Assembly (NCBI RefSeq): GCF_055900595.2
Contig: NZ_CM148325.1
Reading direction: 5' to 3' (one strand)
DNA: 64,000 bases
Below are positions 10,147-10,183 of this stretch, in pieces; position 1 is the first letter of the stretch; each line of letters starts with the position of its first letter. Made by a program: the position numbers and the translations under genes. The notes beneath the pieces were generated by a model that had not been told where the DNA came from, did no database searches, and saw only the letters and a program-made list of their open reading frames with translations.

Positions 10147-10183
10147 CTGGGTGTATATACAGTTATGCTGTGAGTATATACAG
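10147..10183 (-). promoter_or_regulatory. Two tandem LexA operators (SOS boxes) in the lexA promoter
   Basis: Reverse strand reads CTGTATATACTCACAG and CTGTATATACACCCAG (CTGT-N8-ACAG), 10-45 bp upstream of the lexA start. Confidence 0.95.

Follow-up and report, generated by a model that had tools for sequence, protein, structure and literature searches.

The 64,000-nucleotide stretch of DNA analyzed here (the window; contig NZ_CM148325.1 of the NCBI RefSeq assembly GCF_055900595.2) carries a lexA gene on its minus strand, preceded by a gene for diacylglycerol kinase (dgkA) and followed by a gene for a MATE transporter (dinF). The lexA product matches the PDB chains of Escherichia coli LexA at about 1e-129, including 3jso, 3jsp, and 3k3r, which we take to be complexes of LexA with operator DNA. 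The cognate LexA repressor is present, as the gene adjacent to the feature described below encodes both a DNA-binding domain and an S24 self-cleaving domain. The gene order dgkA-lexA-dinF-yjbJ-zur is common to the window and to E. coli K-12, and the RefSeq annotation gives dgkA-lexA-dinF in 5,425 of 5,426 complete E. coli genomes. The coordinates of the genes and regulatory elements are collected in Table 1.

Table 1. Genes and regulatory elements of the lexA region, numbered by position in the window.
Feature	Position	Strand	Basis and description
dinF coding sequence, as annotated	8132..9511	-	Open reading frame, 459 aa; MATE transporter; Pfam MatE 8.6e-44; RefSeq
Terminator-like hairpin	9490..9519	-	Terminator scan; 13-bp GC-rich stem, 4-nt loop, then GUUUUUC
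lexA coding sequence	9530..10138	-	Open reading frame, 202 aa + stop; Pfam LexA_DNA_bind 1.2e-31, Peptidase_S24 1.1e-36
Downstream LexA operator	20-mer 10145..10164, core 16-mer 10147..10162	-	AACTGTATATACACCCAGGG; about +2 to +21; 18.32 bits
Dcm site CCAGG	10146..10150	.	Sequence; within the downstream operator
Transcription start site	10165	-	Derived from the numbering of PMC9210283
Upstream LexA operator	20-mer 10166..10185, core 16-mer 10168..10183	-	TGCTGTATATACTCACAGCA; about -20 to -1; 18.66 bits
-10 hexamer TATACT	10173..10178	-	By eye from the sequence; inside the upstream operator
Probable -35 hexamer TTCCAA	10196..10201	-	By eye; 17-bp spacer to the -10; 3/6 consensus positions

The feature under study is a pair of 16-bp palindromic LexA boxes at 10147..10183, separated by a 5-bp gap (10163..10167). 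On the plus strand, CTGGGTGTATATACAG at 10147..10162 is followed by the spacer TTATG and by CTGTGAGTATATACAG at 10168..10183; on the gene strand the order is TTCCAAAATCGCCTTTTG-CTGTATATACTCACAG-CATAA-CTGTATATACACCCAG-GGGGCGGA-ATG. The upstream box, CTGTATATACTCACAG, is an exact CTGT-N8-ACAG and overlaps the -10 hexamer, and the downstream box, CTGTATATACACCCAG, has one mismatch to this motif (CCAG for ACAG). The core CTG-N10-CAG is exact in both boxes, and each shows dyad symmetry within its 20-bp site. The box centers are 21 bp apart, and the two 20-mers sit 27 and 6 nt from the lexA ATG (10138..10136), the proximal 16-mer being 8 nt from it. The right arm of the downstream operator extends into the Shine-Dalgarno stretch. 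A preliminary description of this DNA had placed two near-perfect CTGT-N8-ACAG operators, 5 bp apart, at 10147-10183 and immediately upstream of lexA; the coordinates prove exact for one perfect and one singly mismatched box, and the position relative to lexA is borne out on the minus strand, the description having left the strand unstated.

The upstream operator (10166..10185) is presumably the lexA box 1 of the older nomenclature. In Kozuch 2020 (PMC7440846), the upstream site is named operator II and the downstream site operator I. The CTG-N10-CAG sequence is the core needed for LexA binding, and C is among the two favored bases at operator position 15 (Culyba et al. 2018, PMC5999292); the downstream box carries a C at this position.

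The 109-bp dgkA-lexA intergenic region shows 0 differences from that of K-12 MG1655, with the operators, the -10, the spacer, and the Dcm site included. The genes on either side do differ from K-12: 7 of 369 nt in dgkA, 24 of 609 nt (3.9%) in lexA, all of them synonymous and with 0 amino-acid changes, and 49 of 1,380 nt (3.6%) in dinF, with 10 amino-acid changes. The segment 8132..10616 is unusually divergent from K-12, and an identity of at least 99% over 1.3 kb is found in only 8 of 5,425 genomes, which points to a minority lineage or to recombination of this segment; given such divergent flanks, the 100% identity of the promoter to K-12 stands out. Among the 5,426 complete E. coli genomes, the 41 bp over both 20-mers are identical in 5,407. 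The two LexA operators of the K-12 lexA promoter were reportedly described in 1981 by Brent and Ptashne and by Little, Mount, and Yanisch-Perron. Well upstream of the operators and outside the promoter, position 10237 is the site of the one polymorphism (A/T) that is common in this intergenic region among E. coli. The allele GAATTC, an EcoRI site, is found in the window, K-12, O157:H7, and E. albertii. The allele GATTTC is carried by each of three genomes drawn from the class with 99.1% identity, to which roughly two thirds of the rows in an even sampling belong.

The motif CTGT-N8-ACAG by itself occurs in the window at chance level, with one exact match in 64 kb against 0.63 expected and 17 matches with at most one mismatch against 18.1 expected. 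A count of this motif was for this reason rejected as sufficient evidence, and a weight matrix was used instead. It is the core CTG-N10-CAG, and not CTGT-N8-ACAG, that defines a LexA site. The tandem pattern CTG-N10-CAG-N5-CTG-N10-CAG has its sole match in the window at 10147..10183, with 0 mismatches, where 0.13 matches would be expected even with one mismatch allowed. The matrix was symmetrised, spanned 20 bp, and was derived from 16 other SOS operators of K-12, with the lexA sites left out to keep the test non-circular. These 16 operator sequences, from 13 K-12 loci, are those of the SOS literature and each was verified upstream of the named gene, the training genes being recA, sulA, umuD, uvrA/ssb, recN (three sites), uvrB, dinG, dinB, dinI, polB, yebG, ruvA, uvrD, and sbmC. 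The matrix consensus reproduces the published TACTGTATATATATACAGTA; the operator consensus is what PMC2994835 and PMC8072944 print, and individual operator sequences are not given there.

In the matrix scan of about 64,000 positions, the two lexA boxes rank first and second and the third-ranked position reaches 8.19 bits, so that the window holds no other LexA-site candidate above 8.2 bits. Among 500 dinucleotide-preserving shuffles, 7 reach 18.32 bits at least once and none contains two such matches within 40 bp. The training sites themselves score 12.6-28.5 bits (median 20.7) when the full matrix is used and 3.4-27.9 bits when each is left out in turn, the latter being the fairer comparison, and each lexA box is of middling strength inside this range. 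The scan with a LexA weight matrix that had been proposed as a check of the boxes thus returns them as the top two matches of the window, clear of the rest by about 10 bits. The further suggestion that the pair makes a good internal control for motif recognition in the window holds for the full-length matrix and fails for the short motif, with its one match against 0.63 expected. In Salmonella, a consensus-only scan has been reported to miss the second lexA box.

To place the pair in a wider context, one genome per species was taken, which gave 80 Enterobacterales lexA loci with usable upstream sequence in 79, and boxes were counted with the same matrix at a threshold of at least 9 bits in 80 upstream regions, the window included. 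At least two boxes lie upstream of lexA in 77 of the 80 regions. Of the 77 multi-box regions, 72 place the proximal 20-mer at 6 nt from the ATG, and the center-to-center spacing is 21 bp in 65 of the 77 and 19-20 bp in the other 12. All 12 of the latter, in which the 16-mers are 3-4 bp apart, are Erwiniaceae-type (Pantoea, Tatumella, Erwinia, Mixta, and Rosenbergiella; loci L051, L053, L058, L062, L066, L067, L070, L077, L079, L080, L081, and L083). In the 432 kb that these loci comprise, the 70-bp stretches upstream of lexA hold 153 matches of at least 12 bits, and the remaining ~427 kb hold 6. The chance occurrence of a short palindromic motif would explain a CTGT-N8-ACAG, which is expected about 0.6 times per 64 kb, or about 18 times in its one-mismatch form, but it is at odds with full-length matrix scores 10 bits above the rest of the window, with the absence of a comparable pair from all 500 shuffles, with a position relative to lexA that is fixed in 77 of 80 species-level sequences, and with the 153 matches at lexA promoters against 6 elsewhere; the probability that we would assign to it is practically nil.

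Only one intact box is left in Candidatus Pantoea persica, Arsenophonus nasoniae, and an Enterobacteriaceae MAG (L089, L093, and L052). The downstream box is lost in A. nasoniae and decayed in the MAG (CTG to TTT), and it is the upstream box that is decayed in Candidatus P. persica (CTG to CTA). A. nasoniae and Candidatus P. persica are presumably symbionts, and the decay of a box in these two would be consistent with relaxed selection. The end of the downstream operator also varies by genus. E. coli, Citrobacter, Enterobacter, Erwinia, Pantoea, and others have CCAGG there (as ACCCAGG or AACCAGG), and Serratia, Yersinia, Proteus, and Photorhabdus have AAACAGG; the same pattern of CCAGG and ACAGG endings is described in PMC9210283.

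When 78 distinct promoters are aligned, the columns whose base is shared by at least 95% of them coincide almost exactly with the two boxes, together with the G-rich stretch for ribosome binding and a portion of the -35, of which the TTCC is partly conserved; the upstream core 16-mer is kept at this level, and elsewhere the dgkA-lexA intergenic region lacks conservation. With the -10 lying inside the upstream box and the Shine-Dalgarno sequence bordering the downstream one, some positions would be conserved regardless of LexA, and one could argue that the promoter and ribosome-binding region alone account for the conservation and that the palindromes are incidental and bind no protein. The conserved positions, however, are in each box exactly the CTG/CAG arms and the AT-rich spacer, and these include those of the transcribed downstream box, which holds no promoter element. 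A matrix trained on unrelated promoters recognizes both boxes, and single operator-base mutations abolish LexA repression while promoter strength in lexA-deleted cells is unchanged (PMC7440846). Taken with these points, an explanation by promoter and ribosome-binding sequences alone is very improbable, and the LexA operator reading is retained.

The lexA promoter itself was not called by a generic sigma-70 promoter scan, because its -35, TTCCAA, matches only three of six consensus positions. The -35 and -10 were therefore assigned by eye and from the literature, in which the upstream operator is described as overlapping conserved RNA polymerase binding sequences (PMC7440846), and TTCCAA is the probable -35 of the lexA promoter. 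The start site follows from published numbering. In Lewis et al. 2021 (PMC9210283), the cytosines targeted by Dcm have the numbers +17 and +45, and the internal C of CCAGG at 10149 (site 10150..10146) and that at 10121 (site 10122..10118) both give the same +1, from which we infer the start site of lexA and, in turn, the extents of the two 20-mers relative to it that are listed in Table 1.

The Dcm site that the downstream operator contains is part of CCCAGG at 10151..10146 on the gene strand, which is a CCWGG that overlaps the operator's right arm and is preceded by one more C on its 5' side, and the apparent mismatch C of the downstream box is accounted for by the Dcm site that it creates. 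Dcm methylation in the downstream operator is specific to stationary phase and is hindered by bound LexA, which competes with Dcm at this site, and it has no measurable effect on lexA expression (PMC9210283).

A third CTG-N10-CAG, CTCTGGTTTATTGTGCAGTT, lies on the minus strand at 10224..10209, just upstream of the -35. With a score of only 6.7 bits and no conservation across the 78 Enterobacterales promoters, it was rejected as a third lexA operator. This site is probably the operator III of Kozuch et al., who report a putative third upstream lexA operator to be non-functional (PMC7440846).

Taken together, the feature is the LexA operator (SOS box) pair of the E. coli lexA promoter, through which LexA negatively regulates its own gene, and we put the probability of this reading at about 97%. 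LexA binds each 20-bp operator as a dimer (PMC5999292), and each imperfect palindrome is contacted through its two CTG/CAG motifs, 10 bp apart. The upstream site would cover the -10 up to the start site and the downstream site the first transcribed positions, from about +2 to +21, so that bound LexA would keep RNA polymerase off the promoter or block its escape, which would be the steric basis of the repression that LexA exerts on its own synthesis. Upon DNA damage, RecA filaments stimulate the self-cleavage of LexA, both sites become empty, lexA is highly transcribed, and the repressor pool is quickly rebuilt as the damage signal fades.

Experiments on the K-12 promoter, which has the same sequence, have established this negative autoregulation. 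Kozuch et al. (PMC7440846) inactivated the operators by point mutation in a PlexA-gfp reporter and on the chromosome. Either operator alone gives partial repression and both contribute equally, and the loss of both abolishes repression and UV induction with the intrinsic promoter strength unchanged (PMC7440846). The downstream operator, identical in sequence in K-12, has a Kd of about 15 nM by EMSA (PMC9210283, PMC7440846), and negative autoregulation, in which RecA-stimulated self-cleavage of LexA frees the promoter and the repressor pool is then rebuilt, is described in both of these papers (PMC7440846, PMC9210283). The initial naming of the feature as tandem SOS boxes controlling lexA is thus supported by the identity of lexA, by the K-12-identical promoter, and by the published operator mutations. 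It was also rightly called a textbook feature: no detail of it is new, and every base agrees with the K-12 reference, on whose identical sequence the operators have been shown experimentally. The lexA operators are among the first bacterial operators to be characterized, and their worth in the present window is that of a positive control and not of a discovery. As a caution for similar calls, a secure assignment needs the full 20-bp matrix together with the tandem arrangement, the position at lexA, and conservation.

The extent to which the same boxes also control dinF is less direct. The annotated dinF starts 18 bp past the lexA stop on the same strand, and a strong terminator-like hairpin lies across the junction. 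The 76-nt RNA segment that contains it (9470..9545) has a folding energy of -28.3 kcal/mol (z = -3.3), a value reached by 0 of 200 shuffles. In 79 related loci, dgkA precedes lexA in 76, and dinF follows lexA in 50 and is absent downstream in 29. A perfect stem of at least 7 bp is found in the 100 nt after the lexA stop both where dinF is linked (40 of 49 loci) and where it is not (26 of 30); since such stems follow lexA with or without dinF, the junction hairpin looks like a general lexA terminator and not a dinF-specific element.

With a hairpin between the two genes, any control of dinF by the SOS boxes must pass through read-through. The transcription of dinF would then proceed from the lexA promoter by transcripts that read through the junction hairpin, with partial termination before dinF. 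The later literature cites Krueger 1983 for genetic evidence that lexA and dinF are co-transcribed as one unit. The expression of the two genes correlates at 0.86 over 907 arrays, in which both switch on together, and at only 0.34-0.56 in some array compendia; the dinF 'on' level is lower than that of lexA, which read-through of the hairpin would fit. From the lexA stop to the dinF start, nothing resembling a sigma-70 promoter was detected on the gene strand by the promoter scan. A separate LexA box for dinF was sought as well and rejected, there being no match of at least 12 bits in the lexA-dinF interval at any of the 79 loci.

These observations bear on a narrower reading that limits the action of the boxes to lexA, takes the hairpin for an efficient terminator, and has dinF expressed by some other means. 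The 13-bp GC-rich stem and T-run directly after the lexA stop, the 29 of 79 related loci that have no dinF downstream of lexA, and the lower correlation of 0.34-0.56 in some compendia would all suit it. It is opposed by a junction in which the scan finds no gene-strand sigma-70-like promoter, by the lack of an intergenic LexA box of at least 12 bits in all 79 loci, and by a literature that treats lexA-dinF as one unit, with the correlation of 0.86 over 907 arrays, and we regard it as unlikely. The preliminary description had the boxes controlling lexA-dinF. Its lexA half stands, and its dinF half rests on the co-transcription literature and becomes less direct in view of the junction hairpin.

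The annotation of dinF itself calls for a separate remark. The annotated ATG (9511) falls within the hairpin stem, and in the segment 9455..9511 (minus strand) the first 18 codons of the annotated gene are encoded by the hairpin and the T-run. In a tblastn search, DinF matches in more distant genera mostly start at query residue 17-22, and an in-frame ATG (M19, MAFLTSSDK...) is present at 9457..9455. Judged from these sequence features, the true dinF start may therefore lie 18 codons downstream of the annotated one.

Other features were observed elsewhere in the window. An IS10-like (ISVsa5, IS4-family) insertion sequence occupies about 44980..46340, with a 402-aa transposase open reading frame at 45105..46313 (plus strand) and a match to the RNA-OUT antisense RNA at 45043..45112 (minus strand), and it abuts a 725-aa open reading frame at 42868..45045. 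An insertion at this site was found in 0 of 5,426 complete E. coli genomes, as no record covers at least 80% of the two-junction query, and a search for terminal inverted repeats at a minimum length of 18 found none. A complete ribosomal RNA operon lies on the minus strand at 53668..58679, with 16S rRNA, tRNA-Glu (56977..57052), 23S rRNA, and 5S rRNA, and with a StyR-44 match in the rRNA spacer just upstream of the 23S rRNA. A lysine riboswitch aptamer at 31969..32165 (plus strand, 99.5 bits) is presumably the lysC leader. REP-type repeat clusters detected by the naRNA4 model and an STnc430 sRNA match occur at 48125..48385, 17857..17927, and 29979..30050 on the minus strand and at 29765..29913 on the plus strand, and three of the naRNA4 matches stand in tandem at about 48.1-48.4 kb.

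The presence of several LexA boxes in one promoter is shared with recN, which has three boxes, and with colicin genes, which have two overlapping boxes, both named as other multi-operator cases by Kozuch et al. (PMC7440846). In K-12, the presence of the recN boxes TACTGTATATAAAACCAGTT, TACTGTACACAATAACAGTA, and TAATGGTTTTTCATACAGGA upstream of their gene was confirmed. Spacing and position relative to the start site differ between these promoters and lexA; recN has 20-mers at 48 and 26 nt from the ATG where the lexA 20-mers are at 27 and 6 nt. Unlike in recN and the colicin genes, the gene regulated at lexA encodes the repressor itself, which closes a feedback loop. The single-operator promoters of recA, sulA, umuDC, uvrA, uvrB, dinB, and others share the 20-bp operator type, with the same consensus, and the overlap with or adjacency to the promoter, but they have one site where lexA has two.

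Why lexA has two sites is a question on which the geometry and the published experiments both bear. It has repeatedly been proposed (per PMC7440846) that the two LexA dimers bind cooperatively, with adjacent contact on the same helix face, and that the tandem arrangement sharpens the switch. The 21-bp center spacing, equal to two helical turns and found in 65 of 77 two-box promoters, would permit such a contact, and in vitro repression gives Hill slopes of about -2.5, with wide confidence intervals (PMC9210283). On the other hand, Kozuch et al. saw no inter-dimer cooperativity, and in their hands a single operator of matched strength equaled the wild-type double operator in induction, kinetics, and fitness (PMC7440846). 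Furthermore, the 19-20 bp spacing of the Erwiniaceae would rotate the dimers by about 35-70 degrees relative to each other, which is hard to fit to a fixed contact; this spacing provides an independent and indirect argument, drawn from promoter sequences, that would speak against an obligatory dimer-dimer contact. Cooperative binding as the reason for the tandem is accordingly doubtful, although it is a less remote prospect than the alternatives weighed above.

It is conceivable, at about the same low odds as cooperative binding, that the second operator is kept for a reason other than added repression. The downstream box could act as a roadblock, as a 5'-UTR or translation-linked element, as the target of a second factor, or as a buffer against mutation of a single site. 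Among the 80 upstream regions, only one MAG and two symbionts with reduced genomes have a single box left. That nearly all Enterobacterales examined (77 of 80) keep both boxes stands in contrast to a double arrangement that has no laboratory phenotype, and if the second operator has another role, this role would be visible under natural conditions only.
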